From an uncultured Candidatus Saccharibacteria bacterium (GTDB lineage Bacteria > Patescibacteriota > Minisyncoccia > Phycocordibacterales > Phycocordibacteraceae): 61,893 nt of DNA. The stretch is from the NCBI GenBank assembly GCA_964349555.1, contig CAYGGK010000003.1:1-61893 (forward strand), in the 5' to 3' direction. The notes under the pieces are model-generated. The model was not told the DNA's origin, made no database searches, and saw only the letters and a program-made list of their open reading frames with translations. How positions within the stretch are numbered: the first letter of the stretch is position 1; every line of letters begins with the position of its first letter. Below are positions 5,895-50,392 of this stretch, piece by piece. The translations under genes and the position numbers were made by a program.

Positions 5895-6488
5895 ATGAAA
5901 TTTCTCATTGGCGTCGACGAGGCGGGGCGAGGGCCACTCGCGGGACCAGTCAGTGTGGGGATAGTCGCCGTGCCGGAGGGGTTTGATGTAACGAAAGAGT
6001 TCCCCGGGGTGAGAGATTCAAAAAAACTTTCAGAAAAGGGAAGGGAGAAGATTTTTACAGAATTAGAAGCGCGCGTCGCTCTTGGAGACGTGCATTTTAG
6101 GGTTGAATTTGAGAGCGCTGAGGCGGTTGATATTGAAGGCATTGCGGTGGCGGTGCGCCGCGCGCTTGCGCGCGGCGTGAATGCGCTCGCGCCGGGTGCG
6201 GCGCTCGTAAAAATACAGCTCGACGGCGCGCTGCGTGCGCCGAAAGAATATTCACAAGAAACGATTATTAACGGCGACGAGCTCGTTCCGCTCATCTCGC
6301 TCGCTTCTATCGCGGCGAAGGTCACTCGCGATCGGTTGATGAGGGAGCTCGCGAAGGAGTATCCGCAGTACGGTTTTGAAAAACATAAGGGGTACGGTAC
6401 TCCCGCACATTATGAAATGCTTAAAAAACATGGCCTTTGCGCTATTCACCGCCAGTCTTTTATACATCTTGATTTAAGGTCAAGATAG
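5895..6488 (+). CDS. rnhB: ribonuclease HII
   Basis: The N-terminus IGVDEAGRGPLAGPV is the RNase HII signature; 197 aa. Confidence 0.9.
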   Translation: MKFLIGVDEAGRGPLAGPVSVGIVAVPEGFDVTKEFPGVRDSKKLSEKGREKIFTELEARVALGDVHFRVEFESAEAVDIEGIAVAVRRALARGVNALAPGAALVKIQLDGALRAPKEYSQETIINGDELVPLISLASIAAKVTRDRLMRELAKEYPQYGFEKHKGYGTPAHYEMLKKHGLCAIHRQSFIHLDLRSR

Positions 6489-6849: not shown

Positions 6850-7206
6850 ATGTCAATTCGCATGCGCCATACAAGGGGCCACACCGGCAATCGCCGGTCG
6901 CATCACGCGCTCTCTGAAACCAATGTCGTGAAGGATAAGGAGAGCGGGAATCTCCGCCTGCCTCACCGCATTGATGAGGTCACGGGTGTATATCGCGGGA
7001 AACAAATTTTTGTCCCTAAGGTGAAAACCGAGCACAGACCAAAAGTGAGGGGTCCTTCTACGGAACCGGTCGTGAAGCACACACACGAACATGCGGCAGA
7101 GGTGCATGCGAACGCGGAAGCAAAAAGTTCGAAGGGAGTTTTTGGTAAATTGTTTAAGGGAGAAGGGCGCCCGAAGGCGAGAAGCGGTTTCGGAGGGGGC
7201 GCCTAG
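6850..7206 (+). CDS. rpmF: 50S ribosomal protein L32 with long C-terminal extension
   Basis: The N-terminus MRHTRGHTGNRRSHHAL matches the L32 signature. The ORF is 118 aa, versus about 60 aa for typical L32. Confidence 0.8.
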   Translation: MSIRMRHTRGHTGNRRSHHALSETNVVKDKESGNLRLPHRIDEVTGVYRGKQIFVPKVKTEHRPKVRGPSTEPVVKHTHEHAAEVHANAEAKSSKGVFGKLFKGEGRPKARSGFGGGA

Positions 7207-7337: not shown

Positions 7338-8276
7338 ATGGCGAATAGACACCTAGCACGTTCCATCGTTCTCCAAACTCTTTTTGAGTGGGACACCGCG
7401 CACGCCTCCGAGGCAGACGCGCAGACGATTCTCGCGCGCAACGTCGCAGAGTTCGGCGGCGACGACACAGATCAGTCGTTCATGGAAAATCTTCTCTCCG
7501 GCGTTCTCGCCAAATGCGGCGACATTGACCTTGTCATCACAAAGGCCGCGCCCGAGTGGCCCTTGGAGCGCATCGCTCCCGTTGACCGCAACATACTGCG
7601 CCTCGGGCTCTTTGAACTCCTTTTTGCCGACCGCTCGCAGGTACCGGCGAAGGTCGCCATTAACGAAGCCATCGAGCTCGCGAAGACCTTCGGCGGGGAT
7701 TCTTCGGGCCGATTTGTAAATGGAGTCCTCGGCGCCATCTATAAAGAGCTCGGTGAGCCAGGGAAGGACGAGCAGGCCGTGAAGAAAAACACGAAGGTTA
7801 AATATGAGGATATGCCTCTCCAAGCGCTCGGCGGGGCGGTCGTCTATGCGAAGCACGAAGGACAGTACTATCTCGCGCTCGTGCACGACGTGTTCGGCCA
7901 TTGGACGCTCTCAAAGGGGAAGTTGGAGCCGGGAGAGAGCCCGGAAGCAGGGACCGCTCGCGAGATTAAAGAAGAGATGGGAATAGACATCGTTATTGAA
8001 GAAAAAATAGGAGAGAACGAGTACGTCGCGTCTCATCCGGAGAAGGGGAAGTATAGGAAACACGTGAGTTACTTTTTGGCGCGCGCCGACTATGTGCCGC
8101 TCAAGCTGGAGCCCGGCAAGGGGGGGCTTGATGACACGAAGTGGTTCCGTCTGCAGGACATCATTGACCTCAATTTTTACGATGATATGCTCCCTATCGT
8201 CACGGCGGCCGTTCAAAAACTCCTGGATCATGCGAGTAAAGAGAAAGGTCTCAACGCCGTAGGTACCGAGCGCTAG
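7338..8276 (+). CDS. nusB: NusB antitermination factor fused to a C-terminal NUDIX hydrolase domain
   Basis: Residues 1-137 are NusB-like (RSIVLQTLFEWD, DRNILRLGLFELLF, AINEAIELAKTFGG, FVNGVLG). Residues ~160-300 carry a perfect Nudix box, GKLEPGESPEAGTAREIKEEMGI. Confidence 0.85.
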   Translation: MANRHLARSIVLQTLFEWDTAHASEADAQTILARNVAEFGGDDTDQSFMENLLSGVLAKCGDIDLVITKAAPEWPLERIAPVDRNILRLGLFELLFADRSQVPAKVAINEAIELAKTFGGDSSGRFVNGVLGAIYKELGEPGKDEQAVKKNTKVKYEDMPLQALGGAVVYAKHEGQYYLALVHDVFGHWTLSKGKLEPGESPEAGTAREIKEEMGIDIVIEEKIGENEYVASHPEKGKYRKHVSYFLARADYVPLKLEPGKGGLDDTKWFRLQDIIDLNFYDDMLPIVTAAVQKLLDHASKEKGLNAVGTER

Positions 8277-9018: not shown

Positions 9019-11253
9019 ATGTTGAAACGACTGGAAATAGTCGGGTTTAAGTCATTCGCCAAGAAGACGGTCTTGGATTTCGTGAATGCCACGACGGCTA
9101 TCGTGGGACCGAACGGTTCTGGCAAAAGCAATGTCGCCGAGGCGTTCCGCTTCGCGCTCGGCGAGCAGTCAATGAAAAGCATGCGCGGGAAGCGCACAGA
9201 GGACCTCATTTGGGGCGGCTCTCACACGACGCCGAGAGCGAATCGCGCTTCTGTGGCTATCATTTTCGATAATTCCCGCCTGCCTGCGCAGGCAGGTCGC
9301 ATGTTCAAGATAGATTTCGATGAAGTTTCCATTGAGCGCACAATCTTCCGCGACGGAACTGGCGAGTATGCTATCAACGGTTCGCGCGTCCGCCTCCGCG
9401 ATATTGAAGAGCTTCTTGCGGGCGCGAATATCGGCGAGACGGGGCATCATATCATCTCCCAGGGCGAGTCAGACCGGATACTGCTTGCCAGCGCGCGCGA
9501 GCGGCGCGCGATGCTGGAAGACGCTCTCGGACTCAAGATGTATGAATTTAAGAAGAATGAAGCGCAGAGGAAACTGGTTAAAACGGAGGAGAACATCGCG
9601 CAGGTTAATTCACTTCGGAGAGAGTTGGCGCCGCACCTGCGCTTCTTGGAGAGCCAGGTGAAAAAATTAGAGCGTGCCGATGAGCTCCGGAGCGAACTCA
9701 CTTCGCTCGCACAGACTTACTTCTCTATTGAAGAGGCGTATCTCGCACAGGAAAAGCTGAAGGCCACCGAGGAGAAGCGCAGTGCGTCGGAAAAGCTCTC
9801 GACGGTAACCGTCGAACTTGCACACATAGAAGAACACTCAACGACAGACGTCGAGGGAACGAAGCGTCTTGAATTGGTGCGCAAGATTGAAAGGGATATC
9901 GAACGTATCACAGGAGAGCGCTCAGCGCTCGCGCGCGCCATCGGCCGAGTAGAAGGGTCGCTCTCAGTAGCCGCAGAACATCGGGAGAAGGTTGTGCAAA
10001 AACCGTATGTAAAGGTTCCGCGCGAAGACCTTGCCGCACTTGCGCGCGAAGTGGAGACGCAGATGGCGGAAGAACCACGTACGCCGGATGCGACGACTGC
10101 GGCGCTCGTCGCAGTCGGCACAGCGATCATGGCGTTTATAAATCGTTTCGTTATTCCACAGGACGACATACTCGTTGAAGAGGAGCGTACGACCTACGCG
10201 CTCGAAAATGAGCGAACAGAGCTCCTTAAGAAGGACGCCAGTCTCGCCGAAGAACTTGACCGCGCGAAATCCGCGCTCGCACGTTCGCGCGAAGCGCTCT
10301 CCGCGCATGATGAAACCGGCAGGGAAATGCGTCGCCGCACATTGGATCTCGCGCAGTCTCAAGCGCATGAAGAGGGCGTGATAACGAAGATTGAAGCGCG
10401 CGAACACGAACTCGCTCTCTTGAAGGATATCTTGGAGCGCGATAAGGGTGAGGTCCTCGTTCTTGCCGGTGCCGCATCAGTCTCTTACACTCCGCTCGTA
10501 GCACCTCCCTCCGAAGAGCGAAGAGTACAAGAGGACCGTAGGCGCACTATGGAACGAATGAAAATACGTTTGGAAGAAGCGGGCGGTACTGGTGACGACG
10601 TCAAACACGAACACAAAGAAGTTTCCGAACGCGAAGCATTTCTCGCCACAGAGCTGGACGACCTCGCAAAATCGGCGTCGGGACTTCGCGCGCTTATCAA
10701 CGACTTGGATACAGAGTTGGCCACACACTTCTCCGAAGGGCTCGCGAAGGTGAACGCATCGTTTGGCGAATACTTTGCCCTCATGTTTGACGGTGGCGGT
10801 GCGCGACTAGTCCTCGAAGCCGAGGACGACGTAGAGGAGTCCGAAGATCTCGAGGAGCCAGACGACGAGGGGCTGGATATCCCTAAGGAGAAGGAGAGGC
10901 CCGGCATAGAAATCACTGTCAGTCTGCCGAAAAAGAAAGTGCGCTCACTGATGCAGCTCTCGGGAGGGGAGCGCGCCCTGACCAGTATCGCGCTCATATT
11001 TGCTATGAGCCAGGTGAACCCACCTCCGTTCCTCATCTTGGACGAGACCGATGCCGCCCTCGACGAGGCGAACAGTCGCCGCTATGGGGATATGATAGAA
11101 AATCTCGCGAAACGGTCGCAGCTCATTGTCATCACGCACAACCGCGAGACCATGAGCCGTGCCAATATCCTCTACGGCGTGACTATGGGTAGCGACGGCG
11201 TCAGCAAACTCCTCTCAGTGAAGTTCGACGAAGCCGTCGCTGTTGCGAGATAG
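9019..11253 (+). CDS. smc: SMC-family ATPase, short form without recognisable hinge
   Basis: The N-head is GFKSFAKKT...IVGPNGSGKSN..EAFRFALGEQS. The C-head is LSGGERALTSIALIFA...FLILDETDAALD. It is only 744 aa. Confidence 0.8.
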   Translation: MLKRLEIVGFKSFAKKTVLDFVNATTAIVGPNGSGKSNVAEAFRFALGEQSMKSMRGKRTEDLIWGGSHTTPRANRASVAIIFDNSRLPAQAGRMFKIDFDEVSIERTIFRDGTGEYAINGSRVRLRDIEELLAGANIGETGHHIISQGESDRILLASARERRAMLEDALGLKMYEFKKNEAQRKLVKTEENIAQVNSLRRELAPHLRFLESQVKKLERADELRSELTSLAQTYFSIEEAYLAQEKLKATEEKRSASEKLSTVTVELAHIEEHSTTDVEGTKRLELVRKIERDIERITGERSALARAIGRVEGSLSVAAEHREKVVQKPYVKVPREDLAALAREVETQMAEEPRTPDATTAALVAVGTAIMAFINRFVIPQDDILVEEERTTYALENERTELLKKDASLAEELDRAKSALARSREALSAHDETGREMRRRTLDLAQSQAHEEGVITKIEAREHELALLKDILERDKGEVLVLAGAASVSYTPLVAPPSEERRVQEDRRRTMERMKIRLEEAGGTGDDVKHEHKEVSEREAFLATELDDLAKSASGLRALINDLDTELATHFSEGLAKVNASFGEYFALMFDGGGARLVLEAEDDVEESEDLEEPDDEGLDIPKEKERPGIEITVSLPKKKVRSLMQLSGGERALTSIALIFAMSQVNPPPFLILDETDAALDEANSRRYGDMIENLAKRSQLIVITHNRETMSRANILYGVTMGSDGVSKLLSVKFDEAVAVAR

Positions 11254-13871: not shown

Positions 13872-14189
13872 ATGGAACCAGACCAAGCATTTCTCGAATA
13901 CGCGGTAAAGGCGCTCGCTGACCACCCCGAGGCGGTTGAGACGACGCGTACCATCGACCAAATGGGAGTGTTGCTAACGCTAACCGTACACCCGGAAGAC
14001 ATGGGCAAGATTATCGGCAAGAGCGGAAAAACCGCAGAAGCGCTCCGCATTCTTCTAAGAGTCGTAGGGATGAAAGGGAACGCGCGGGTGAATCTTAAAA
14101 TAAACGAGCCCGTCGGTGGCAAGCGCCTGCCTGCGCAGGCAGGCGAACAGGAGCACAAAACCGTCGATCAGGTTGTAGAAGAGCTCTAA
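13872..14189 (+). CDS. KH-domain RNA-binding protein (YlqC/UPF0109-like)
   Basis: Has the KH core MGKIIGKSGKTAEALRILL and the conserved position after rpsP. Confidence 0.8.
   Translation: MEPDQAFLEYAVKALADHPEAVETTRTIDQMGVLLTLTVHPEDMGKIIGKSGKTAEALRILLRVVGMKGNARVNLKINEPVGGKRLPAQAGEQEHKTVDQVVEEL
14124..14145. repeat. 22-nt perfect palindrome CGCCTGCCTGCGCAGGCAGGCG, in frame in the KH gene
   Basis: Self-complementary by direct reading. The core recurs at 9279-9296 (smc) and, degenerate, at 41276-41297 (uvrC). Confidence 0.9.
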
Positions 14190-22254: not shown

Positions 22255-22974
22255 ATGGACAATAAAATAAACGACAAATACTTTTTACCGGCGACCGTTA
22301 TAATCGCGGGGCTTCTTATCGCCGGCTCAATTGTGTGGAATGGTATGCGCCCCGTGGATTCGACCCTTCAAGACATTTCAGGGCAGGCAGGCTCACCACA
22401 GGCTGGCACCGCGTCTAAGGTGAACGTTAAGAACATTAAGACTGACGGGAATCCTTTCATCGGGAAAATGAGCGCGCCGGTGACCATAGTCGTGTGGGGC
22501 GACTTCCAGTGCCCTTTTTGCAAACGGTTTGAGACCGAAACCCTGCCGCTTATCGTGAAGGAGTATGTGGAGAAAGGGAGCGTGAAAGTCGTCTTCTTGG
22601 ATTTTGCATTCTTGGGTCCCGACTCAATTACCGCGGGCGAATATAATCGCGCGATCTGGAAGCTCCATCCGGAAAAATATGCCGAGTGGCGCGCCGCGAT
22701 GTATAAAGCCCAAGATGCTGAGCACGGAGGGTTCGGCAACGCCGCTTCTATCGACAAGCTAAACGCGACGATTCCCGGTGTTGACGCGGCGAAGGTTGCC
22801 GCTGATGTGAAGGCGAATGCGAGCGCATATCAGGCAATGATGGATGCCGACAAGAACGAGGCACAAAAGGTCGGCGTGGACGCAACCCCCTCCTTCGTCA
22901 TCGGTGCGCAAGTCATAAAGGGCGCTTATCCGTATCCGACGTTCCAGGCGGCGATAGACGCCGCTCTTAAGTAG
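22255..22974 (+). CDS. DsbA-family thiol:disulfide oxidoreductase, N-terminally anchored
   Basis: A TM helix is followed by a thioredoxin fold with WGDFQCPFCKRF (CxxC). Confidence 0.8.
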   Translation: MDNKINDKYFLPATVIIAGLLIAGSIVWNGMRPVDSTLQDISGQAGSPQAGTASKVNVKNIKTDGNPFIGKMSAPVTIVVWGDFQCPFCKRFETETLPLIVKEYVEKGSVKVVFLDFAFLGPDSITAGEYNRAIWKLHPEKYAEWRAAMYKAQDAEHGGFGNAASIDKLNATIPGVDAAKVAADVKANASAYQAMMDADKNEAQKVGVDATPSFVIGAQVIKGAYPYPTFQAAIDAALK

Positions 22975-25826: not shown

Positions 25827-28595
25827 ATGTCTGAAAAACCTCCACAACAAAAAACGAGTTTGAATTCGCCGAATTTCTATGAACGATTGGGTGTGAGTCC
25901 TTATGCAGCAGCAGGCGAGATTAAAGAGGCGCATCGAAAACTTGCGAAAAAATTGCATCCGGATACGAACGGAGAATTGGATCCACGTACAAGGAAGAAA
26001 AACGAAGATGATTTTAAACTGATTAATGAAGCGTATGACAGCCTTAAAAACAAGGACCGCCGGCAAAGATACGACGACGGAACATTATCCTTTGACCCAT
26101 CGCGAGAGACAAGAAGGGCTCGTCGAGAGCAGAATTTTGCTACGAGAGAGGCAGAAAAGCGACAACAAGGGAGAAAGAAAAAAGAGGCGGAGAGAACAGC
26201 CGCTCAAACGGCGCAGAAAGAGCAACCACAAGAACCGCCTCCAGAAGAAGCGAAGCCAGACGAAAGATTTGAGCCAGCAACGGGTTCTGGCGCAGTACCT
26301 GAGACAGAACCCCAAGTCGATCTCAAGGTCGACGTTAAAGAACCAGAACCGACAACGGACTTTGGCCATGCGTTTAAGAACGCAAAACCACTCACAGGAA
26401 AGAGTAGGCGGAGAAGAGAAAATGGAAATAAAAATGAGGAAGCGAAGAAAGCGCCTGAAGCCTCTCCTGTTGTTGAAACCGAAGAACCAAAAGTAGAGTC
26501 CACATCCAAGCCAGAAGAGCCAACTGAAAAAAAGAATCCTTGGGCTCCAGGAGGAGTAAGCCGTGCGGCGGTACTTGTGGACTTCGCCAAGATTTTCCCG
26601 AAAGGACAAATTCCCGAGAGTGTACATGGGGCTTTAATAAAGCTCATCAACGAACAATACTTGAACTTTTCTCTTAAAGATGAAGTCGCACAGAAGGGAG
26701 TCGAGGAAGAGATATCTAGACTTTTTGGTGAACAGCGTAAGGAGGGAGAAGCAAGGACAAACGCAGAAAAGACCCAAGAGTCGACTGGGTTGGTAAGCCA
26801 GTCTGTCGTAGAGGAGAAACTGCCAAACACGGAACCAGCGCTAGAAACGGAGCCAGTATTAGAAGAAGAAAAAGCTCCCCCTTCTCCGCTTGTCGCAGAT
26901 AGGGAGGAAGCCCTTGATATAGATGCGATTTCGCGCGGAGTGAACGGTAATGAGAAGACGCCAGCGGAATGGAGGAGAAAGCTTAGCTCTCTAATTGGTG
27001 CCATGCAGAAAACAGGTGAAAGTGCTTCCGAGCAATTCAAGAGGTCAAAAAAAATCCTCACAGACCGGGACACGAGTCTTACTGAGAAGGCGAAAACAGT
27101 AGGTAAAGAAACGGGGAAACTTCTTATAGATGTCGGAGAACGCTACCGCAAGCTTCCGCTTAAATATAAAATCGCCTTGTCAGCCGTGCTCATCGGCGGT
27201 TCAATTCTCAGCGGCGTCGGCATACTCGGCACCGTTTTGGCCGCGGCAAAGCTCGGACAGCGTACAGCCGCCTCGCTCGGCGTCTATGTGCTCGTTAACG
27301 GACTCATGGAAAAAAGAATTGCTGATAGAGAAGAAAAGAGCAGGGAGGAAAAGGACATGAATTGGGAGAGGCTCCCAGGAGAAAACAGAATAAAACAAAC
27401 TGTTTCTGTAGGTGCCGCGGCCGCGGTTTTTCTTGGCCTTCCAGGATATGGGATTAAAGAAGGATTTGAAGCCGCGGGTGGTGAGCGCGTGATTGCATGG
27501 CTCGGCGGTATGCTCGGACATTCTGTGCCGACAGGAGCGCCTGAAGTTATTCCACAGCCAGCGCCTGGGCCCGCGGCCGTTGCGGCCGCGGGTGAAGCCA
27601 TCGCTCCTATTGTTGCGCCGGAAGCGCCAGAGTCCGTGCCCGCACCAAAACCAGAAACTGTCTTTGTCGCATCCGTGAACGAACCAAATTTTTCTAAGGA
27701 ACCACCATTAGAGCCAGTGGCCGCCGAGGCCGTGCCAGAAGCCGCCGCCGTCTCTCCGGAGATGCCCGAGACTGAGGTTAAGGCGACGCCCGGCAAGGGC
27801 TACGAATACATGGCGAAGCGGCTTTGGGAACAGTTGCAGGACAAAGGTCTTGATCCGACGCAGTATGCCGAAGGGAGCGATATCCGCCGATTGCTTGAGG
27901 CCGATGCGAAGTCAATTGATACCGTCGTGCATCAAATCGCCGCCGACCCTGCACACGGATTTTTTAATCCTGACGGCACAAGTGTTCTTATTGACTCTGA
28001 CTCGCACATGACAATTAACGCAGAAGGGAACATACAGGTCGGTGACGCGGTTATGGCGCCCGAGAATGCGCCGACAACGCCGGCGTACCCTCCTCCCGAG
28101 GCTCCCTCAGCCGCCGAGGCGTTTCCTGTGCATGGCGAACCAGCACCCCTTCCGTCTGTAGAAGTACCACCATATGAAGTGGCACCGGCTCTGGAACCGA
28201 CTGTTGAACAAACATCTCCCCAGGAAGAAACAGCCGTGCGGTCAGAAGTTATCGCAGAGACCCCCACATTCCTAACGAAAGTTGATGGTGTTCTGATTGA
28301 CCCGCAAACCCCGGCGATTTATGAGGCCCAATCACCCTCTGGAGAAAAGTATCTTACAGCCTATGGAGGAAGCGATGAAGAGCGATTCAAACTTATTCAG
28401 GATTATCTCGCGCGCCCGGAGAATCAGGATCAATCAATCCGCTTTGTGCATGAAGTCCCCTCAATGCTCGGCTCTCAAACCAGGGTAGACGAAATCGGAG
28501 CCGGCACGAACGCTGGAAAGACTTCATGGTTTATTGACTTCTTTAAGAAGCCGATACCACCACCATCCCCAAGCACTTTCCTGAGACGATTATAA
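25827..28595 (+). CDS. J-domain (DnaJ-like) giant membrane protein
   Basis: The N-terminal J domain is FYERLGVSPYAAAGEIKEAHRKLAKKLHPD...INEAYDSL. It is followed by a long K/E/P-rich region, central TM helices and a Pro/Ala-rich C-terminal half. It starts 6 nt after the ATPase stop codon. Confidence 0.75.
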   Translation: MSEKPPQQKTSLNSPNFYERLGVSPYAAAGEIKEAHRKLAKKLHPDTNGELDPRTRKKNEDDFKLINEAYDSLKNKDRRQRYDDGTLSFDPSRETRRARREQNFATREAEKRQQGRKKKEAERTAAQTAQKEQPQEPPPEEAKPDERFEPATGSGAVPETEPQVDLKVDVKEPEPTTDFGHAFKNAKPLTGKSRRRRENGNKNEEAKKAPEASPVVETEEPKVESTSKPEEPTEKKNPWAPGGVSRAAVLVDFAKIFPKGQIPESVHGALIKLINEQYLNFSLKDEVAQKGVEEEISRLFGEQRKEGEARTNAEKTQESTGLVSQSVVEEKLPNTEPALETEPVLEEEKAPPSPLVADREEALDIDAISRGVNGNEKTPAEWRRKLSSLIGAMQKTGESASEQFKRSKKILTDRDTSLTEKAKTVGKETGKLLIDVGERYRKLPLKYKIALSAVLIGGSILSGVGILGTVLAAAKLGQRTAASLGVYVLVNGLMEKRIADREEKSREEKDMNWERLPGENRIKQTVSVGAAAAVFLGLPGYGIKEGFEAAGGERVIAWLGGMLGHSVPTGAPEVIPQPAPGPAAVAAAGEAIAPIVAPEAPESVPAPKPETVFVASVNEPNFSKEPPLEPVAAEAVPEAAAVSPEMPETEVKATPGKGYEYMAKRLWEQLQDKGLDPTQYAEGSDIRRLLEADAKSIDTVVHQIAADPAHGFFNPDGTSVLIDSDSHMTINAEGNIQVGDAVMAPENAPTTPAYPPPEAPSAAEAFPVHGEPAPLPSVEVPPYEVAPALEPTVEQTSPQEETAVRSEVIAETPTFLTKVDGVLIDPQTPAIYEAQSPSGEKYLTAYGGSDEERFKLIQDYLARPENQDQSIRFVHEVPSMLGSQTRVDEIGAGTNAGKTSWFIDFFKKPIPPPSPSTFLRRL

Positions 28596-31633: not shown

Positions 31634-33691
31634 ATGTCGAGTAATTTCAAACTTAACCTACCGTTCCAGCCCGCGGGAGATCAGCCGAAGGCAATACGAG
31701 CACTCGCACAAGGACTTAAAAAAAATTTGCGGCATCAAACGCTCTTTGGCGTGACCGGTTCGGGCAAGACTTTTACCATCGCGAACGTTATTGCAAAGAA
31801 CGATATGCCAACGCTCGTTCTCGCGCACAATAAGACGCTTGCCGCCCAGCTTGCGCAGGAGTATCGGGAGTTTTTCCCCGAGAATGCCGTGCACTACTTT
31901 GTCTCCTATTACGATTACTACCAGCCGGAGGCGTATCTGGCGCACTCGGATACGTATATAGAGAAGGAAGCGATGATTAACGCCGAGATAGACCGCCTGC
32001 GCCACGCGGCGACGCAGGCGCTTCTCACGCGCAAGGACGTCATCATCGTCGCCTCGGTCTCCGCCATCTACGGCCTCGGCTCGCCGGAAGAATATGAAAA
32101 GGTACATATAAAACTCGCCGTGGGAGCGCCAGAGGCGAGGAGTTCGCTCATACGAAAACTAATCAGTATCCACTTTGAGCGGACGAACGCCGACGTGAAT
32201 CCCGGGCAGTTTCGCGCTGTCGGCAACTCGCTTGAGTTCATGCCAGTCAACGAACGTTCACTGTATCGCGTGACCTTTTCTGCCGGAGACGACAGCGTCA
32301 TTGAGCATATCGACCAGCTTGATCCGGTTTCGCGCGCGAAGCGCGCAGAACCAAAGACAGTTTTCGTCTTTCCGGCCAAACACTTTATTACGAGCGAAAA
32401 TGAGCGCGCCCGCGCAATGATTGACATAAAACTTGAACTGGAAGAACAGCTCGCCAAGTTCAAACGGGAAGAGAAGCCTCTAGAGGCGGAGCGGCTGAAA
32501 CGCCGCACGCACTACGACTTGGCACTCATCAGAGAAGTCGGATACACCAGCGGCATTGAAAATTATTCTCGTCATTTTGACGGAAGAAAGCCGGGCGAGC
32601 CGCCCTTCACACTTCTTTCATACTTTCCGAAAAATTTTCTGACGGTCATAGACGAGTCGCATGTCACCGTCCCGCAGATAGGCGGCATGTACGCGGGTGA
32701 TAAGTCGCGTAAGGACGCCCTCATTGAACACGGCTTTCGCCTCCCGTCGGCGCGCGACAATCGCCCCCTTCGGTTTGAAGAATTCGAGAGCCGCGTTGGG
32801 AAAGTCATTTACACGAGTGCGACACCGGGGCCATATGAACGCGCTCATTCGGAACAGATAGTCGAGCAAGTAATCCGTCCGACTGGTCTCATAGATCCCG
32901 AGCTCACCGTGCGTCCCGTTTCCGAAGGCGCAGAAATGAAAGGTTTCGTAAACCCTTCATTTGATGAAGGGTTTACGAAACCAAAATACCGAGGACAGAT
33001 TGCGGATTTTATCTCTGAAGCAGAGACGGTTATTAAGCGCGGAGGGAGAGCGCTCGCGACGACACTGACGAAACGAATGGCCGAAGACCTCTCGACGTTT
33101 CTGCGCGAGAAGGGAATGAAGGCCGAATACTTGCATTCCGACGTAAAAACGATTGACCGTATCGATATCCTTACTAATTTTCGCAAAGGCAAGTTTGATA
33201 TTCTCATCGGGGTGAACTTGCTTCGTGAAGGCCTTGACCTGCCGGAGGTTGAGCTCGTCGGCATCTTGGATGCTGACAAGGAAGGATTTCTGCGGAGCGA
33301 AACATCGCTCATTCAGACAATCGGACGAGCGGCACGCAACGTGCTCGGTCGCGTGATTCTCTACGCCGATACGATGACTGGGTCGCTTGAGAGGGCGATA
33401 AGCGAGACAAATCGTCGCCGTACCGTACAAATGGCGTATAACAAAAAACACCGCATCACGCCGAAGACCATCAAGAAAGAAATTCACGATATCGCGGCGT
33501 CTATGCGCACCGAGCATGAGCGCACGATTGACGAGCTTCTTGTTCTGGACACTCTTGCGTATAAGAATAATCCGAAAGCATTCATAAAGCGAAAGAAAGA
33601 AGAGATGAAAGAAGCGGTTGAGCAGTTAGATTTTGAAACAGCCGCGCTCATACGTGATGAACTATATAAGCTGGAGGGCGCGAAGTCGTGA
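31634..33691 (+). CDS. uvrB: excinuclease ABC subunit B
   Basis: Has PAGDQPKAI, the helicase motifs GVTGSGKT and DESH, and a C-terminal UVR domain (FETAALIRDEL). Confidence 0.95.
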   Translation: MSSNFKLNLPFQPAGDQPKAIRALAQGLKKNLRHQTLFGVTGSGKTFTIANVIAKNDMPTLVLAHNKTLAAQLAQEYREFFPENAVHYFVSYYDYYQPEAYLAHSDTYIEKEAMINAEIDRLRHAATQALLTRKDVIIVASVSAIYGLGSPEEYEKVHIKLAVGAPEARSSLIRKLISIHFERTNADVNPGQFRAVGNSLEFMPVNERSLYRVTFSAGDDSVIEHIDQLDPVSRAKRAEPKTVFVFPAKHFITSENERARAMIDIKLELEEQLAKFKREEKPLEAERLKRRTHYDLALIREVGYTSGIENYSRHFDGRKPGEPPFTLLSYFPKNFLTVIDESHVTVPQIGGMYAGDKSRKDALIEHGFRLPSARDNRPLRFEEFESRVGKVIYTSATPGPYERAHSEQIVEQVIRPTGLIDPELTVRPVSEGAEMKGFVNPSFDEGFTKPKYRGQIADFISEAETVIKRGGRALATTLTKRMAEDLSTFLREKGMKAEYLHSDVKTIDRIDILTNFRKGKFDILIGVNLLREGLDLPEVELVGILDADKEGFLRSETSLIQTIGRAARNVLGRVILYADTMTGSLERAISETNRRRTVQMAYNKKHRITPKTIKKEIHDIAASMRTEHERTIDELLVLDTLAYKNNPKAFIKRKKEEMKEAVEQLDFETAALIRDELYKLEGAKS
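32942..32982. repeat. 41-nt perfect hairpin (19-bp arms, 3-nt loop) in frame inside uvrB
   Basis: GGTTTCGTAAACCCTTCAT-TTG-ATGAAGGGTTTACGAAACC was checked base by base. It encodes GFVNPSFDEGFTKP. Confidence 0.9.
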
Positions 33692-36124: not shown

Positions 36125-36144
36125 CTCTGCAAAAATGGTGAGGT

Positions 36145-36176
36145 AATGGGGTAATTGGGACAGCCCCATTGTTTTA
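36145..36176 (+). terminator. probable terminator of 35186..36124
   Basis: AATGGGG (36145-36151) / CCCCATT (36164-36170), followed by GTTTTA. Confidence 0.5.
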
Positions 36177-36223
36177 GAAATTGCATAAAAACAAACAAGG
36201 ATTAACCTTGTTCCGTTTCAAGT

Positions 36224-36253
36224 CAACAATTCTTGCTATAGCAAGAATTGTTG
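36224..36253. repeat. perfect 13-bp inverted repeat CAACAATTCTTGC-TATA-GCAAGAATTGTTG
   Basis: Read directly; intergenic. Confidence 0.8.
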
Positions 36254-36302
36254 ACAACCCTGACCCCATTTATTCTTTATTCGAGCGGAAGACCACCCTT
36301 AA

Positions 36303-36333
36303 CCCCACTTGGAAGCTTAGCTTCCAAGTGGGG
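36303..36333. repeat. perfect 15-bp palindrome CCCCACTTGGAAGCT-T-AGCTTCCAAGTGGGG
   Basis: Read directly. It lies 18 nt downstream of the stop of the minus-strand gene 36351..36626 and is probably its terminator. Confidence 0.8.
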
Positions 36334-36350
36334 TACGGCTCCCACTGTTT

Positions 36351-36626
36351 CTACTGTCCGTCTGCAGGTGCGGTGAGTTGTTCCAATATCGCTTCTCGCT
36401 CGGCGTCCGGAATCGTCGCTCCGCCCTCCGGCGCGGTCAAGTCTTGGAGAATGAGAGCTTTTTCTTCTTCTGTCAGGAATACATTTTCCTGCTCTGCTTG
36501 GTTAGGAAGAAGCGCCCAAGCATCTTTCCCGTACAACCACCACACAGCGCCAGCGACAACCGCGACTAACGCGAGCACTCCGAGAATGACATACACTCTT
36601 CGCTGATTTCCTGTATTGGTATCCAT
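36351..36626 (-). CDS. small N-terminally anchored protein with internal repeat (E..ILQDLTAP.GG / E..ILEQLTAP.DG)
   Basis: Starts at ATG 36626 (MDTNTGNQRRVYVILGVLALVAVVAG), with TACGAT 6 nt upstream. Confidence 0.45.
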   Translation of the reverse strand: MDTNTGNQRRVYVILGVLALVAVVAGAVWWLYGKDAWALLPNQAEQENVFLTEEEKALILQDLTAPEGGATIPDAEREAILEQLTAPADGQ

Positions 36627-36689
36627 ACGTCTATCGTACCATCCTCTATGAATACGTATCCACACCTCTTCTCGGTGGATAGCCAATAA

Positions 36690-37901: not shown

Positions 37902-38001
37902 CCGAGGGCTGCCCTCGGTAAATGAAATAAAGCCCATACGTTAGTGTGGTACACTCGCACCGTACCTGCCCCACCACGGGCAGGGGTTTACGTATCTTCC
38001 A

Positions 38002-40719
38002 ATGAAAAAGCAAACTGCCAAAGAGCATCACCACAAGCACGGGAGCGACCCCTCGATGCGACAAGCACTCGGGGTAGGTTGGCTCACGGTCAAGGGCGCG
38101 CGCACCCATAATCTGAAAAATATTTCGGTCAGCATGCCGAGAGGCGCGATGACGGTTATCACCGGCCTCTCGGGGAGCGGCAAATCCTCGCTCGCCTTTG
38201 ATACGATTTTCGCAGAAGGCCAGCGGCGCTATGTGGAGTCGCTCTCCGCCTACGCGAGGCAATTCCTTAATCAGATGGCGAAGCCGGACGTTGATGAAAT
38301 TTCCGGCCTCTCGCCCGCCATCTCCATAGACCAGAAGAGCCGCTCCAACAACCCGCGCTCGACTGTGGCGACCGTTACCGAGATTTATGATTATCTGCGC
38401 GTGCTCTACGCACGCGCTGGTCAGCCGTACTGTATTCATCACGACGTGCCTATCGCCCGGCTCTCTAAGGAGGAAATGATTAAGATGGTCCTCTCGCGTG
38501 TGGAGGAGAGGCGTCAAAACCGAAGCCAAACTTCGGTAATGGGGGTGGCGGTAGACAAAAGCGCCGTGACCATTTATGCGCCGGTGGTCGTTGGGAGGAA
38601 GGGCGAATACTATCAAATGCTCTATGATTTGCTCGGCAAAGGGTATGAAAAAGTGTTGATTGACAGCAAAGTCCAGTCGCTCCGCGAGAAGATAGTGCTG
38701 GATAGAAACAAGAGACACGACATAGACGCGGTTGTTGACTCAATTTATGTTTCGGAACTCGCGCCTGCCGGAGGCAGGCCCTTCTCCGGAGGGCGCGAGA
38801 GGCTTTCGGAGGCGTTAGAGCTCGCGCTTAAAGAGGCCGGCGGACTAGTAAAAATCCGACATGCCGACGGAACGCTTGAGACCCTTTCCTCCAAGTTCAT
38901 CTGTCCGGAAGACGGAGCGTCCTTTCCTGAAGTAGAGCCGCGTCTTTTCTCCTTCAATTCGCCCTACGGCGCGTGTCCCTCGTGCCACGGCCTCGGCACC
39001 GAAACTCTCTTTTCTGAAAAAGCATGTCCGGCCTGCGAAGGGAAGCGACTTAGGCAAGAAGCACTGCGTGTCTTCTTGAAAAGCACCAAGCACGAAGCAC
39101 CAAGCGCGAAGAAGTCCAAGAATCCTCTAGGAACCAGTATTGTTGATTTCACTAACATGTCCATCAGAGAAGCGAAGGATTTTATTGATTCTATAGAACT
39201 TTCAGAAATGAAAAAAGACATTACCGCGCCGATTTTGAAAGAAATAGACAGCCGTCTTTCTTTCATGCTCAACGTCGGTCTTGATTATTTGACACTGAAC
39301 CGCTCCGCCGCGACTTTGTCAGGCGGAGAGAGCCAGCGCATACGGCTCGCCTCACAGCTCGGGAGCGGACTCACCGGAGCGCTCTATGTTCTTGATGAGC
39401 CGACCATCGGGCTCCATCAGAAAGATAACGACCGACTCATCAAAACATTGCTCATTTTGAAAGAGCTTGGGAACACGATTCTTGTCGTTGAGCATGACGA
39501 GGACACGATATACTCCTCTGATTATATTGTAGATATCGGCCCCGGTGCGGGCATACACGGTGGCGAGGTCGTGGTTTCGGGCTGGCTGGATGATTTGCTG
39601 ACCGCACATAAAAATGAAAGCAATTCGCTCACTCTCTCGTATCTGCGGCAAGAAAAAGAAGTGCAACTTCCGGAGACGCGCCGTACGAGCGAGAAGGGTT
39701 GGATTAAAGTGCGCGGCGCCTCTCTGCACAACCTGAAGAATCAGAATATTGACGTGCCGTTGGGGAAGCTCGTCTGCGTCACGGGCGTCTCGGGAAGCGG
39801 CAAGTCAACCTTTCTGTATAATATTCTGCACCGCAATATCGCGGCGCGCTTCGCGCGCCGCGAGACGAAGCTTGAGCATGTCGCGGCGCTTACCGGCACA
39901 GAGTACGTCAGCCGGGTAATCCTTATAGACCAGTCGCCGATAGGTCGCACGCCACGTTCCAACCCAGCCACCTACACGGGCGCGTTCACTCATATCCGCG
40001 ACCTCTTCGCCGCCACTGCTACTGCGCGCGCTCGCGGATGGAAGCCCGGACGGTTTTCGTTCAATGTTCCAGGAGGCCGCTGTGAAGCATGTGGGGGGAA
40101 CGGCCTCATCGCTGTTGAAATGCACTTCCTCCCCACTGTGTATGTCGTGTGCGATATCTGCAACGGCACGCGCTTTATGAGCGAGACGCTTGAGGTAACC
40201 TTCCGCGGGAAGAATATTCACGAGGTGCTCAAAATGACTATTGAGGAGGCCGAGAAGTTTTTTGAAGATATACCAGCTATCAACGATCGCCTTATGAGCT
40301 TGAACGCCACCGGTCTCCAATATCTCACACTCGGACAGAGCGCGACCACGCTCTCCGGAGGGGAAGCGCAGAGAGTGAAGATAGCAAGCGAACTCTACCG
40401 CTCCATGACCATGAAGACCCTGTATCTGCTGGACGAGCCGACCGTCGGTCTCCACTACGAGGATGTCGCCAAACTCATAGAAATCCTGCAAGAACTCGTG
40501 CGGCGAGGCAACACAGTTGTCGTCATTGAGCACAATCTTGACGTGGTGAAGAGCGCTGATTATATAATTGACTTCGGTCCCGAGGGCGGGGAGGGTGGCG
40601 GGAGGGTAGTCGCGAAGGGTACGCCCGAGGAAGTTGCGGATACCGAAGGTTCGCACACCGGCGAATATCTGCGTAAGGCATTACGACGTCATGCAAAAAA
40701 ACGAACTGCAAAAATATAA
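38002..40719 (+). CDS. uvrA: excinuclease ABC subunit A
   Basis: [25 protein letters not shown], two ABC modules and zinc-finger cysteines; 905 aa. Confidence 0.95.
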
Positions 40720-41971
40720 CCTGCCGGACGTACCCGGAGTATATTTCTTTAAGCAGGGGAGGAAAGTCCTGTATGTCGGCAAGGCGACTTCCTTACGCGA
40801 TCGGGTGCGGTCATACTTTGACGATGCTCTCATCCACGCGCGCGGAGCGCGCGTGGTAGACATGGTAACGAGGGCCGACAAAATCGCGTACGAGACGACG
40901 CCGACTGTGCTTGAAGCGCTCGTCCGCGAAGCGGCGCTTATCAAGAGACATCATCCAGTCGCGAACACAGACGGTAAAGACGATTCTACTTTTTTGTATG
41001 CGGTTATTACGGATGAAGAAATTCCTCGCGTGCTCACCCCCCGTGGTAAGGATATTGATTTCAAAATGAAAAAGTTGAAAGATCAAAAATTAAAAAGCAT
41101 TTTCGGACCGTTTCCTTCGGGGGTCCAACTCCGCGAAGGACTCCGACTCATCCGCCGCATCTTTCCATTTTTCGATACGCAAAAGCCCCTCAACTTCGCT
41201 TGGGGCAGGCCGGTCGCGAATGGTAAACAACAGCAGGCGCAACTAGAGTTCAATACGCAGATTAGGCAGTACCCGCGCCTGCCTGCGCAGTCAGGCACGT
41301 TTGATGCGGCAGAGTATCGTCGGACTATGCGTCATATCGCGCTCTTTCTTGGCGGTAAGGCTACAGAACTTCGGAAAGTGCTCGCTCAAGAGATGAAGCA
41401 GTCGGCCAAGAGAGAGCGTTTTGAGGATGCCGCCCGCGCGCGCCGTCAGCTCTTCGCCCTCGACCATATCCAGGACGTCTCGCTTATCAAGGACGAGAAT
41501 CAAGTATCCTTATCAACAGCCGGTCGGCCAGAGATAGGGATACGAGTTGAGGCGTATGATACGGCGCATTTGTCGGGGACAAATGCGCTGGGTGTGATGG
41601 TGGTTGTCGAGGGCGGTACGCCGGTTAAAAAAGAATATCGGACGTTCAAAATTCGCGGATTAAAAAAGAATGACGACATCGCCTCGCTCCAAGAGATTCT
41701 TTCACGTCGCTTGAATCACCCAGAGTGGCAACTCCCGAAAGTGATTGTTGTGGATGGCGGCATGGTGCATAAAAAGGCGGCGGAAAAAGTTCTCTCTGAC
41801 GCGGGTGTCGGCATTCCGGTCGTTGCCGTGGTGAAAAACGAGCGTCACCGTCCGCGCGAAATTATCGGCGCTCGCCGTGTCAGCGTTTCTGAACCAGACA
41901 TTGTCCTCGCCAACGCCGAGGCGCACCGCTTCGCGCTCTCACGGCATCGCCGAGCTCGCAACGTTGTCTGA
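40691..41971 (+). CDS. uvrC: excinuclease ABC subunit C, short form lacking the C-terminal (HhH)2 domain
   Basis: Has GIY-YIG (PGVYFFKQGRKVLYVGKA), a UVR domain (FEDAARARRQLFAL) and an RNase-H-like endonuclease region (EAYDTAHLSGT). It ends right after EAHRFALSRHR. ATG 40691 overlaps uvrA by 29 nt. Confidence 0.85.
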   Translation: MQKNELQKYNLPDVPGVYFFKQGRKVLYVGKATSLRDRVRSYFDDALIHARGARVVDMVTRADKIAYETTPTVLEALVREAALIKRHHPVANTDGKDDSTFLYAVITDEEIPRVLTPRGKDIDFKMKKLKDQKLKSIFGPFPSGVQLREGLRLIRRIFPFFDTQKPLNFAWGRPVANGKQQQAQLEFNTQIRQYPRLPAQSGTFDAAEYRRTMRHIALFLGGKATELRKVLAQEMKQSAKRERFEDAARARRQLFALDHIQDVSLIKDENQVSLSTAGRPEIGIRVEAYDTAHLSGTNALGVMVVVEGGTPVKKEYRTFKIRGLKKNDDIASLQEILSRRLNHPEWQLPKVIVVDGGMVHKKAAEKVLSDAGVGIPVVAVVKNERHRPREIIGARRVSVSEPDIVLANAEAHRFALSRHRRARNVV

Positions 41972-44839: not shown

Positions 44840-44864
44840 GCAGAGGTGCTAGAGTGGACATATT

Positions 44865-44937
44865 GGGCCCTTAGCTCAGCTGGTAGAGCACCTCATTTGC
44901 AATGAGGGGGTCAGCGGTTCAAATCCGCTAGGGTCCA
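44865..44937 (+). tRNA. tRNA-Ala (anticodon UGC)
   Basis: Hand-folded cloverleaf of 73 nt. It has the G3:U70 identity pair, anticodon loop TTTGCAA and T-loop TTCAAAT. Confidence 0.9.
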
Positions 44938-44993
44938 CCCAAGTTTTTAAGCCCAGAGGGTAAGGCTGAATATTTTCGTAGTATACTGCGCTT

Positions 44994-45686
44994 ATGGAAC
45001 TCATCGCGGGCGATGCAGAGCTTGAAGCGCTCAATGTAGAGCTTAACGATCCGGAGCTGTTGCGCTCCTATAAGGAGCCGTACGACAACTACTGCCCCCA
45101 CTTCATCCCGCGCCTCCTTGGCGGTTTTCTCGTCGGGTGCGGCACCATCATGTACGGACGTGAACCGTCATATTTGAAATTTCGGTCAATAGAGGTCATC
45201 GCGCGCGTACCGTATCATTCGTGGTCCTCTGCGGCGTATACACTTCTCACGGTTTTTTACTCCGACGAACAGAGAGCTCTGCGGCTCTCCCGCGTCGCCC
45301 GATACTCACGCATGGCGCAAGACAACGAAACCATGCACGTGGTCGTCGTGTCGCACCTTGCCAGCCGAGAAGGGAAGGCGGGACTTGTCCGCCACACACT
45401 TATACCGATGTTTTTCGCGTTTTTCTACTTTTGGGCGTCCTACCTCCTTTACCTGATACGGCCTCGTTGGTCACTAGAGATCAACTATCTCTTCGAGCAA
45501 CACGCATTCGAGCAGTACAGCCGCTTTCTCGACCTCCACGAAGAGGAGCTTAAAAAGAAACCGGTTGAGAGCGACTTTCTCGCGCAGTACGGGCGCAATC
45601 CGCGGAGCCAGTACGAGTTCTTTCAATCTGTCCGCAACGACGAGCTCATCCATCGGAATCAGTCGGTAAAGAATATGGGAATGTAG
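44994..45686 (+). CDS. alternative-oxidase-like di-iron carboxylate protein
   Basis: 230 aa with four motifs in AOX/PTOX order: IEVIARVPY, DNETMH (ExxH), FEQHAFEQY and RNDELIHRN (ExxH). Confidence 0.6.
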   Translation: MELIAGDAELEALNVELNDPELLRSYKEPYDNYCPHFIPRLLGGFLVGCGTIMYGREPSYLKFRSIEVIARVPYHSWSSAAYTLLTVFYSDEQRALRLSRVARYSRMAQDNETMHVVVVSHLASREGKAGLVRHTLIPMFFAFFYFWASYLLYLIRPRWSLEINYLFEQHAFEQYSRFLDLHEEELKKKPVESDFLAQYGRNPRSQYEFFQSVRNDELIHRNQSVKNMGM

Positions 45687-45715
45687 TCGGATATCTGATA
45701 TGGTAAGCCGTGTTC

Positions 45716-45789
45716 GCGCTCTTAGCTCAGTTGGTTAGAGCGTCCGCCTCACACGCGGAAGGTCGCAAGTTCGAATCTTGCAGAGCGCA
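45716..45789 (+). tRNA. tRNA-Val (anticodon CAC)
   Basis: Hand-folded, 74 nt, with anticodon loop CTCACAC and T-loop TTCGAAT. Confidence 0.9.
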
Positions 45790-45790
45790 C

Positions 45791-45861
45791 CGGGCTGGAG
45801 TATGCCGGTAGTACGCACGCTTCGGGTGCGTGTAGACCGGGTTCAATTCCCGGCAGCCCGA
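45791..45861 (+). tRNA. tRNA-Pro (anticodon CGG)
   Basis: Hand-folded, 71 nt, with a C1:G72 pair and anticodon loop TTCGGGT. It starts 1 nt after tRNA-Val. Confidence 0.8.
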
Positions 45862-45862
45862 C

Positions 45863-45933
45863 GGGCCTATAGTAAAGTGGTATTACGCGGCATTCGCATT
45901 GCCGAGGCGCGAGTCCGATTCTCGCTAGGTCCA
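45863..45933 (+). tRNA. tRNA-Ala (anticodon CGC)
   Basis: Hand-folded, 71 nt, with G3:U70 and anticodon loop TTCGCAT. The T-loop TCCGATT is unusual (C at position 55). It starts 1 nt after tRNA-Pro. Confidence 0.75.
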
Positions 45934-45944
45934 CAAAATAAGGA
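45929..45944 (+). repeat. 16-nt direct repeat GTCCACAAAATAAGGA (tRNA-Ala 3' end plus flank), copy 1
   Basis: The identical 16-mer recurs at 52198-52213. Confidence 0.75.
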
Positions 45945-45988
45945 GGGCAGCGATTGGCGAGCATAGGCGAGGAAATACTGAGGCCGAC

Positions 45989-46078
45989 AGGCCGAACGTG
46001 CCATATTTTGTGAGAGTCCTGAGGAGTCTTCGACGTAGGGGTCCACTCGACTTGCTCCGCTCGCTCGTGGTAAACCAC
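45989..46078 (+). repeat. island-flank repeat, copy A (~90 nt)
   Basis: 46003-46078 aligns with 52225-52300 (few mismatches). 45989-46046 aligns with 52311-52368. Confidence 0.75.
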
Positions 46079-46105
46079 AAAACAACGAGCACTCGAGAAC
46101 GATGT

Positions 46106-48275: not shown

Positions 48276-48277
48276 GT

Positions 48278-48526: not shown

Positions 48527-48643
48527 AGTGGTATAGGACTATCGAATAATCGATAAAGTCCTCTCTTGGCTTGGCAGGCCCTATTGCAAGGCAACCCGCA
48601 AAGCCAACAAAGGGCTTTACGACGTGCAATAGGTTTAATGCAA

Positions 48644-49134: not shown

Positions 49135-49170
49135 ACTGTTATTTAACTGTTCTGCAGCACTGACATTGTT

Positions 49171-50386: not shown

Positions 50387-50392
50387 ACGAAT

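Follow-up and report, generated by a model that had tools for sequence, protein, structure and literature searches.

The question raised by this locus is why one and the same short palindrome should be found, in one reading frame, inside several unrelated housekeeping genes. The DNA analysed is a stretch of 61,893 nt from an uncultured Candidatus Saccharibacteria bacterium (contig CAYGGK010000003.1), the whole of which is called the window below. The palindrome is the 18-nt word CCTGCCTGCGCAGGCAGG, designated P, which has the structure (CCTG)2-CG-(CAGG)2 and is perfectly self-complementary. The original prediction, made from the letters of the window, had reported copies in smc, in a KH-protein gene and in uvrC, and had proposed a miniature mobile element, a recognition or uptake signal, or a hairpin-templated mutation as their origin. 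The answer developed here is that P is probably a selfish, non-autonomous "nano" insertion element of 18 bp, mobile now or until recently, and similar in kind to the repetitive extragenic palindromes (REPs) and the Rickettsia palindromic elements (RPEs).

Three lineage-specific insertions in the window

Exact copies of P were found in the window at positions 9279-9296 and 14126-14143, and a copy with one mismatch (G to T, G14T) at 41278-41295, all three in genes of the forward strand. The first lies in the gene of a 744-aa SMC_N protein (9019-11253), where it adds LPAQAG between Arg86 and Arg93; the second in the gene of a 105-aa KhpA-type KH protein (13872-14189), in the C-terminal tail past the Pfam KH match; and the third in the gene of a short UvrC (40634/40691-41971), where the substitution gives LPAQSG between the GIY-YIG and UVR domains. 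As predicted, all three are read in one frame, CGC CTG CCT GCG CAG G/TCA GG, which encodes RLPAQ(A/S)G. Dinucleotide-preserving shuffles (n = 100) gave an expectation of 0.02 matches at 3 mismatches or fewer, and three matches were reached in 0 of the 100, which agrees with the earlier judgement that a recurrence by chance is very unlikely.

The perfect 22-nt palindrome CGCCTGCCTGCGCAGGCAGGCG reported at 14124-14145 was recovered exactly, and corresponds to the KH copy of P together with a CG on each flank. It had been taken as the repeated unit; this unit is however the 18-mer, because similarity between the three window copies ends at about 22-24 nt. The computed folding energy of the single-stranded DNA is -6.5 kcal/mol for the 18-mer and -10.9 kcal/mol for the 22-mer. 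A shorter relative had also been proposed in uvrA (38002-40719, forward strand), the gene immediately upstream of uvrC. The hairpin itself is present (CCTGCC-GGA-GGCAGG, CCTGCCGGAGGCAGG, 38764-38778, -7.4 kcal/mol), and UvrA is 4 aa longer around it than the UvrA of locus L236. Its membership in the P family is nevertheless uncertain and its kinship may be mere resemblance; CCTGCC-loop-GGCAGG hairpins with differing loops are present in other genomes. The half-sites at 6955-6963 and 22384-22392 exist and are unremarkable, as had been said of them.

The G + C content of the window is 53-55%, and the nearest proteins to the short SMC and UvrC encoded there carry the labels Paceibacteria, Minisyncoccota or Kaiserbacteria, i.e. 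Patescibacteria, also known as the Candidate Phyla Radiation (CPR). Orthologous loci were compared at the three sites (loci carry labels such as L121 or L236, and proteins labels such as P0017 or P0120). In smc, 115 of the 120 closest orthologues show FDNSR-RxF without an insert, the ancestral form being FDNSR-RxFKIDFDEV, while the window encodes FDNSR(LPAQAG)RMF; at the DNA level, the empty site of L124 reads TCT CGA CGC and the filled site of the window TCC CG(P)T CGC. The KH site is empty in L128 (AAA CGC GAA, encoding GGKR-EPE), L121 also lacks the insert, and the window reads AAG CG(P)C GAA. The ancestral form in uvrC is QYPR-xFDAKEY, with the empty site CCG CGC GAA in L236 and the filled site CCG CG(P')C ACG in the window, P' being the one-mismatch copy. 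The alignment of smc, KH and uvrC orthologues that had been suggested as a check thus shows that all three window copies are lineage-specific insertions of 18 nt (six codons), placed between bases 2 and 3 of an Arg codon (CG/N). A target-site duplication (TSD) is absent at each of the three sites.

Further filled sites were found in one species represented by two independent assemblies (L121 and L122), in which 22 kb hold five copies of P, in genes for an aminoacyl-tRNA synthetase, DnaE, NusB/NUDIX, SMC and RNase R, and both assemblies are identical at all five. The NusB/NUDIX and RNase R copies are clean six-codon insertions relative to the empty sites of the window and of L124; the DnaE and synthetase copies stand in stretches of variable length among relatives, and their boundaries are less clear. 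The only P site common to this species and the window is that of smc. In the NusB/NUDIX gene of L128 (5026-5061), a P with two mismatches is nested at the exact centre of another P, in the arrangement CCTGCCTGC / CATGCCTGCGCATGCAGG / GCAGGCAGG.

The surroundings of the smc site also hold a second family of tiny palindromes, TCCGCC-GGA-GGCGGA-TCCGCC, which forms an in-frame insert (SAGGGSAFG) three codons 3' of the P site. The SMC proteins P0008 and P0113 carry it (L128 smc, about 7430-7470), and it is found again on a metagenome contig that is not related (L145, 2233-2270).

The smc site also gives information on the age of the copies. Its three carriers (the window, P0017/L121 and P0120/L123) have SMC proteins with 72-78% identity, and each has closer relatives that lack P; the nearest relative of P0120, P0119, has a 15-nt version encoding PGRAG at this site. 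Among the three carriers 50-62% of the 4-fold degenerate smc sites differ, whereas P is identical in all three at 18 of 18 positions, for which neutral common inheritance would have a probability of about 0.45^18 per pair. Either three recent independent insertions at one nucleotide or a process that keeps P exact must therefore be assumed. Of 120 uvrC orthologues, 22 bear an insert at one and the same codon, and in a neighbour-joining tree these 22 stand at 8 or more separate places. LPAQAG-like inserts make up about 16 of the 22 (LPAQAG, LPAQSG, LPAQTG, LPAQVG, LPTQAS, LPAHAG, LSAQGG and similar), and the remaining ones are of a 7-aa LPAGRRG/LPAGRQD type or, in three cases, unrelated. At the same codon of the KH gene, L124 carries a slipped derivative of 21 nt encoding LPTGQAG. 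As these degraded versions at the uvrC and KH orthologous sites show, old copies decay and exact copies are young, with the same permissive codons being hit repeatedly.

Distribution, frame and flanks of P

P is not peculiar to this genome and its close relatives. An exact-match scan for it over one genome per GTDB species retrieved at least 120 loci, which were assigned to taxa by the record titles of the listed matches. At least 71 belong to Patescibacteria, with all major groups represented (WWE3, Microgenomates lineages, Dojkabacteria, Saccharibacteria and many Paceibacteria/Parcubacteria lineages); at least 15 to Bacteroidota, including a Sphingobacteriales metagenome-assembled genome (MAG) with 7 loci and the isolate Litoribacter ruber; at least 10 to third-party annotation (TPA) bins titled "Uncultured Gammaproteobacteria/Pseudomonadales", some of which, judging by their neighbours, look like CPR; at least 8 to unclassified records; and at least 16 to other taxa, among them a Rosettibacter isolate, WOR-3, Terriglobia and some high-GC taxa. 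Among the matches listed, Patescibacteria loci with P have 32-55% G + C, mostly 32-50%, and the GC-rich word stands within unrelated AT-rich flanks. The per-site probability of P at 40% G + C is about 1e-12, and well below one chance match would be expected in all CPR genomes of the collection. Viral contigs of IMG/VR gave 25 P loci, whereas two control palindromes of equal composition gave 2 and 0, which further supports the earlier statement on chance; these 25 contigs (L210-L234) are mostly ones of 58-67% G + C without relation to CPR, and often have CG beside P. P thus spans the whole phylum Patescibacteria and beyond, and its distribution follows neither the phylogeny nor the base composition of its hosts. 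In the literature, string and keyword searches found no description of P, of its 16-mer or of LPAQAG.

Copy number is uneven: three copies in the 62 kb of the window, five in the 22 kb of L121, no copy in the 22 kb of L124, and 1-4 detected in other genomes. The copies of the 599-kb contig JBAZKU010000001.1 are dispersed, at 40.7, 151 and 344.5 kb. In the Sphingobacteriales MAG JAAFJW01 (36% G + C; L012, L033, L071, L077, L083, L102) every copy is intergenic, and P joins shuffled short modules (for example gcgttaacgacggtagcgg, aaaaaaggatg, gcgtgtta, aaacgccc) in varied pairings, in a manner resembling a mosaic of the BIME (bacterial interspersed mosaic element) type.

Frame and flanks were tabulated for 125 exact copies. 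Open reading frames (ORFs) of at least 150 aa contain 78 of them (62%), and about a third of the copies are in short-ORF or non-coding DNA. The frame giving LPAQAG predominates in the long ORFs (56 copies, against 14 for PACAGR and 8 for CLRRQ), and the frames are about equally used in short-ORF contexts. Since 18 nt make six codons and all six frames of P are free of stop codons, its insertion never breaks a gene and just adds six residues. Within long ORFs the first tenth holds somewhat more copies than its share (17 of 70), and the spread is even elsewhere.

The base before P is generally a purine (G58 A42 C15 T10) and the base after it a pyrimidine (C50 T46 A17 G12), non-coding copies being alike in this respect. 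The flanks are otherwise unrelated, and the pairing of positions -1 and +1 shows no correlation beyond their marginal frequencies. No TSD is seen in 89 of the 125 copies, and the remainder show 1-3 nt, as by chance; a 16-bp element with a 2-bp "GC" target duplication was also considered and rejected, as it suits 22% of the copies. CG adjoins P in 9 of the 9 copies of the window, L121 and L123, and is enriched 2.7-fold on the flank overall. Slipped or partly duplicated versions of P exist, additional copies met in the fetched loci are exact or have one mismatch only, and in L065, L069 and L077 P is at the centre of far longer palindromes. Some non-coding copies (for example those of L062 and L118) lie between A-runs and T-runs, in the manner of a bidirectional terminator. 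No Rfam family overlaps the non-coding copies, and in the window Rfam retrieved just tRNAs.

Clustering of the ORFs located within 2 kb of P brought out no more than a tRNA-Gln neighbourhood and a pilin-like family. In five Parcubacteria genomes (L027 1718-2105, L037 3530-4013, L042 360-487, L038, L110) P is found in a duplicated 5' fragment of tRNA-Gln, in the context …GCCGGRYCR(P)TCTAATGGTAGGA…, with an intact tRNA-Gln downstream. This fragment lies upstream of a small GIY-YIG or HNH homing-endonuclease-like ORF in L027, L037 and L038, and within about 45-270 nt of the tRNA in L042 and L110. An intron or insertion within the tRNA itself was ruled out, as ARAGORN shows the duplicated 5' fragment to be upstream of the intact tRNA-Gln. 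In the pilin-like family (L025, L026, L032, L039) P stands just before the prepilin-type N-terminal helix (…AGLPAQAG/WTLAELLIVVAII…), so that the inserted Gly occupies the position of the leader-peptide cleavage Gly.

A sequencing or assembly artefact as the source of P was discarded in view of the frame bias, the decayed orthologous copies coming from independent studies, the identical sites in two assemblies, and the presence of P in isolate genomes.

A proposed small mobile palindrome and the rival explanations

Among known systems, REPs are short GC-rich palindromic stem-loops (20-40 nt) present in many copies whose number varies between relatives, a form that P may share: its hairpin is real and measures 18-22 nt, and its copies number three in the 62 kb of the window and five in the 22 kb of L121, but 1-4 detected in other genomes. 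Some REPs lie within genes, especially those for replication and repair, and a CGTC-tagged REP class has no dedicated transposase (Di Nocera et al. 2013, PMC3733652); for P, likewise, none was found. P differs from REPs by being shorter (18 nt) and perfectly self-complementary; by the rarity of the terminal GTAG/CGTC tag, which adjoins it in just 1 of 125 copies; by not flanking a cognate REP-associated tyrosine transposase (RAYT) gene, as in a REPtron (no P in 80 RAYT-like loci); by its mostly intragenic (78 of 125 in ORFs of at least 150 aa) and solitary occurrence, except in the Sphingobacteriales MAG mosaics, whereas REPs are mainly extragenic and often form dimers (REPIN/BIME); and by its identity across phyla, REPs being specific to a species or genus.

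With RPEs, P shares the behaviour of a selfish palindrome that stands in frame in functional housekeeping genes and adds a tolerated peptide. RPEs (Ogata et al. 2000) are reportedly about 100-150 bp long, add 30-50 residues and are confined to Rickettsia. P, with 18 bp and 6 residues, is about ten times shorter, and its hosts are Patescibacteria and others. The earlier suggestion of a miniature palindromic element conceptually close to RPEs remains the best fit; its further proposal that the element survives only as in-frame insertions does not hold, as short-ORF or non-coding DNA holds about a third of the copies and none of the three frames is blocked by a stop codon.

Other mobile DNA offers partial likenesses. 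The GC-cluster or double-hairpin elements of fungal, algal and sponge mitochondria are usually 30-100 nt long, lineage-specific and heterogeneous, and have no known transposase; like P, they are small GC-rich hairpins that invade AT-rich compact genomes, coding regions in frame included, but they are organellar. The "peel and paste" insertion sequences of the IS200/IS605 family resemble P in their precise insertion without target duplication beside a short target word (CG here), in their dependence on hairpins, and in the possibility of seamless excision. Known elements of this family need two different subterminal hairpins and measure from at least 100 nt (palindrome-associated transposable elements, PATEs) to 0.7-2 kb, and no cognate transposase was found for P. 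A MITE (a miniature transposable element with inverted repeats) would need terminal inverted repeats around an internal region, a TSD and a length of 50-500 bp, whereas P consists of two abutting 9-nt arms and has no TSD. P is set apart among small palindromic repeats by its size, its perfection, its translation-neutral design and its pan-phylum identity.

P goes in as a precise 18-bp block at a purine-pyrimidine step without TSD, and in this Paceibacteria lineage the target step is right beside CG, typically in an Arg codon (CG/N). If P is such an element, a trans-acting enzyme would recognise the perfect hairpin or cruciform and copy or move P, and this enzyme, or P itself, may cross phylum boundaries, possibly via phages; a hairpin-specific single-strand transposase of the HUH/Y1 type is the most obvious candidate class, for which a link with RAYTs was looked for and not found. 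Selection would then purge the PACAGR and CLRRQ copies as well as those in structurally important places, and the survivors would be LPAQAG copies in loops, linkers and tails. Old copies decay by point mutation and by slippage of the CCTG/CAGG repeats, and fresh identical copies keep arising in many lineages, often at one permissive codon. For any specific mobilising enzyme, confidence is well below that in a mobile element, because the direct RAYT test failed.

Several observations weigh against a mobile element. P was present in none of 80 RAYT-like Y1-transposase loci (302 kb of CPR DNA, at 2 mismatches or fewer), a sample in which relatives of the query are overrepresented. A distance of 130-185 nt separates two P copies from Y1 genes, a proximity that is not significant if Y1 genes are multi-copy. 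All-versus-all clustering of the ORFs within 2 kb found no gene family recurring beside P, and in about 1.3 Mb neither an element with CCTGCCTGC...GCAGGCAGG termini nor a meaningful excess of paired solo half-sites was detected. Most genomes apparently hold just 1-4 exact copies among the matches listed, and strain-level polymorphism was not found between the two assemblies of the L121 species. No REP-like repeats are known to be perfectly identical across phyla, since such repeats normally diverge together with their host, and this identity could point to selection on the sequence of P. The loci were moreover chosen for exact copies, which inflates the apparent homogeneity; the apparent lack of copies with 2-3 mismatches in the fetched loci is in part an effect of this ascertainment.

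The neighbourhoods of Y1 genes were inspected individually. A Y1_Tnp gene stands beside smc in L127 (12841-13491) and three more are near P copies, and the Y1 genes of L127, L031 (1498-2205) and L029 (3675-4313) are flanked by palindromes of their own, distinct from P. P flanks none of the 83 Y1 genes examined, and a cognate RAYT for P is not supported, given the 80 RAYT-like loci without P and the different palindromes of the nearby Y1 genes. Small GIY-YIG or HNH genes are near P in 4 loci, which is suggestive and too few to build on. A larger parent element was likewise rejected, since the paired P copies flank ordinary housekeeping genes in L033 and one phage gene in L220. As a separate observation, RAYT-like Y1 (HUH) genes abound in CPR metagenomes, with more than 600 pattern matches, and are usually bracketed by their own hairpins of 19-27 nt, mostly perfect (L127, L031, L029, L130-L209), many of which share an …AAGG-loop-CCTT… core; REP/RAYT systems are apparently undescribed for Patescibacteria in the papers searched.

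A stronger form of the mobile-element explanation can be put forward only tentatively: P may be the smallest transposable unit yet seen, actively mobilised in trans, harmless to translation, and held identical across Patescibacteria, some Bacteroidota and phages by one conserved or horizontally moving enzyme. This enzyme would be either a transposase of a new kind, specific for hairpins or cruciforms, or a member of a known nuclease family acting in a new way, and it would insert the same six residues time and again at identical codons of essential proteins.

The rival that survives best, although unlikely, is that P is a functional cis site (a parS-like binding or loading site, a DNA-uptake signal, or a regulatory DNA or RNA hairpin) maintained by selection through a conserved reader protein. 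Such a site would account for the identity of P from 32% to more than 60% G + C and across phyla, for the exact or one-mismatch state of the extra copies in the fetched loci, and for the terminator-like arrangement of non-coding copies between A-runs and T-runs; phylum-wide palindromic words inside genes do exist, for instance parS and the cyanobacterial HIP1. The word HIP1 (highly iterated palindrome 1, GCGATCGC) is 8-10 nt long, has a density of about one per kb and originates by substitution. P resembles it as a phylum-wide palindromic word that is frequent in genes and has a preferred frame, but P is 18 nt long and sparse, and all the copies examined against empty orthologous sites are 18-nt insertions; origin by insertion and not by point mutation is something that selection on a binding site alone cannot yield. 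A DNA uptake sequence or uptake signal sequence (DUS/USS) needs a roughly even density of about 1 per kb across a clade, whereas P is patchy among close relatives (five copies in 22 kb of L121, none in L124, three in the 62-kb window) and absent from the 302 kb of other CPR DNA. parS sites are few, clustered near the origin and kept among relatives, and P is by contrast dispersed and unclustered on JBAZKU010000001.1, with sites that are not conserved and decay freely at the uvrC and KH orthologous positions. The lack of Rfam overlap at the non-coding copies adds to this. The uptake or recognition signal offered by the original prediction is accordingly disfavoured by copies that are sparse, patchy, dispersed and decaying at orthologous sites.

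Less probable again is a repair or excision scar, in which both 3' ends of a break would have received one identical 9-nt extension, CCTGCCTGC, and been joined into a symmetric 18-mer, much as the excision of eukaryotic P-element or Tc1 transposons leaves footprints. The perfect dyad, the symmetric purine/pyrimidine flanks and the lack of target duplication fit this idea, as do the Sphingobacteriales modules joined pairwise through P, as if units of "module + half-P" had been ligated head to head, and the few copies that centre much longer palindromes (L065, L069, L077). Footprints are however normally heterogeneous, and P is uniform; recurrence at the same codon would need a parent element to be repeatedly present in essential genes; and no full element bounded by CCTGCCTGC / GCAGGCAGG, nor paired half-sites in meaningful excess, came to light.

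A local hairpin-templated mutation (template switch, quasi-palindrome), or an effect of chance or composition, is very improbable for P. Perfect hairpins are indeed overrepresented in the window: those with stems of 8 bp or more and loops of 5 nt or less number 28, where Markov-1 simulations give 5.6, and coding hairpins with stems of 10 bp or more number 7, where synonymous-codon shuffling gives 0.43; two uvrC hairpins were built by clustered substitutions in conserved motifs. Template switching nevertheless copies local sequence and cannot give one 18-mer in more than 150 unrelated contexts and in several phyla, the copies of P are clean insertions and not substitutions, and chance is excluded by the shuffles and the control palindromes. 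The hairpin-templated origin considered in the original prediction is thus set aside for P, and seems to apply to other hairpins of the window.

Lastly, that LPAQAG is a selected protein motif with secondary DNA identity is hardly credible, in spite of the strong preference for its frame in genes, because orthologues that share LPAQAG at one site encode it by the identical 18-mer and not by synonymous variants or unrelated codons, the codons are identical across genomes of very different G + C, a third of the copies lie in non-coding DNA or are read in another frame, neither the host proteins nor the positions are related, and the peptide drifts freely at the uvrC site.

Other palindromes of the window and implications of P

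Hairpins of the window other than P include those at 6156-6177, 27570-27592, 39839-39863, 40834-40856 and 41564-41588. The last two are in uvrC and, in comparison with L235 and L236, are not insertions but clustered substitutions in conserved motifs, with a change from LIATRGPRVV to LIHARGARVV and codon changes in AHLSGTNA(I to L). They look like quasi-palindrome correction by template switching, and the hairpin-templated idea has merit for these two, and not for P, because they were made by clustered substitutions. The excess of perfect hairpins arising by clustered substitutions points to a lineage in which mutation that generates palindromes is either more active or better tolerated than usual. 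In uvrB (31634-33691, forward strand) a perfect in-frame hairpin of 41 nt, GGTTTCGTAAACCCTTCAT-TTG-ATGAAGGGTTTACGAAACC, was found at 32942-32982; compared with the UvrB of L236, it adds about 17 residues (…AEMKGFVNPSFDEGFTKP…), so that uvrA, uvrB and uvrC all have palindromic additions in the window.

Two perfect palindromes of 34 nt (36222-36255) and 33 nt (36302-36334), 47 nt apart, are located in an apparently intergenic region (36125-36689), and no further copies of them were found in the window or in the fetched loci. Just upstream of uvrA lies the hairpin CCTGCCCCACCACGGGCAGG (37965-37984), which is conserved in L236 (4795-4812) as CTGCCCCGCCACGGGCAG. It is distinct from P and may serve as a terminator or regulatory stem. 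A low-GC island (46330-52007; 42-49%, against about 54%) lies beside a cluster of five tRNA genes (44864-46638) and encodes a large serine recombinase of 599 aa (Resolvase + Recombinase + Zn_ribbon_recom), together with a series of short ORFs lacking annotation; the island probably represents a mobile element that has integrated.

If P is mobile, it would set a new lower size limit for transposable DNA, and would imply an enzyme able to copy, or to cut and paste, an 18-bp perfect palindrome with single-nucleotide precision and without target duplication, an activity that would be of interest to mobile-DNA biology and to genome engineering. P would also be a very cheap marker of recent insertions, for strain tracking and for horizontal exchange in groundwater communities. 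The LPAQAG, PACAGR and CLRRQ peptides form a recognisable annotation artefact or feature, which is relevant to curators of protein families. CPR genomes are extremely reduced and gene-dense, and selfish DNA would persist in them inside essential genes (smc, uvrC, dnaE, RNase R and others) as a tolerated loop of six residues; P accounts for part of the "unexplained insertions" that are typical of CPR proteins.

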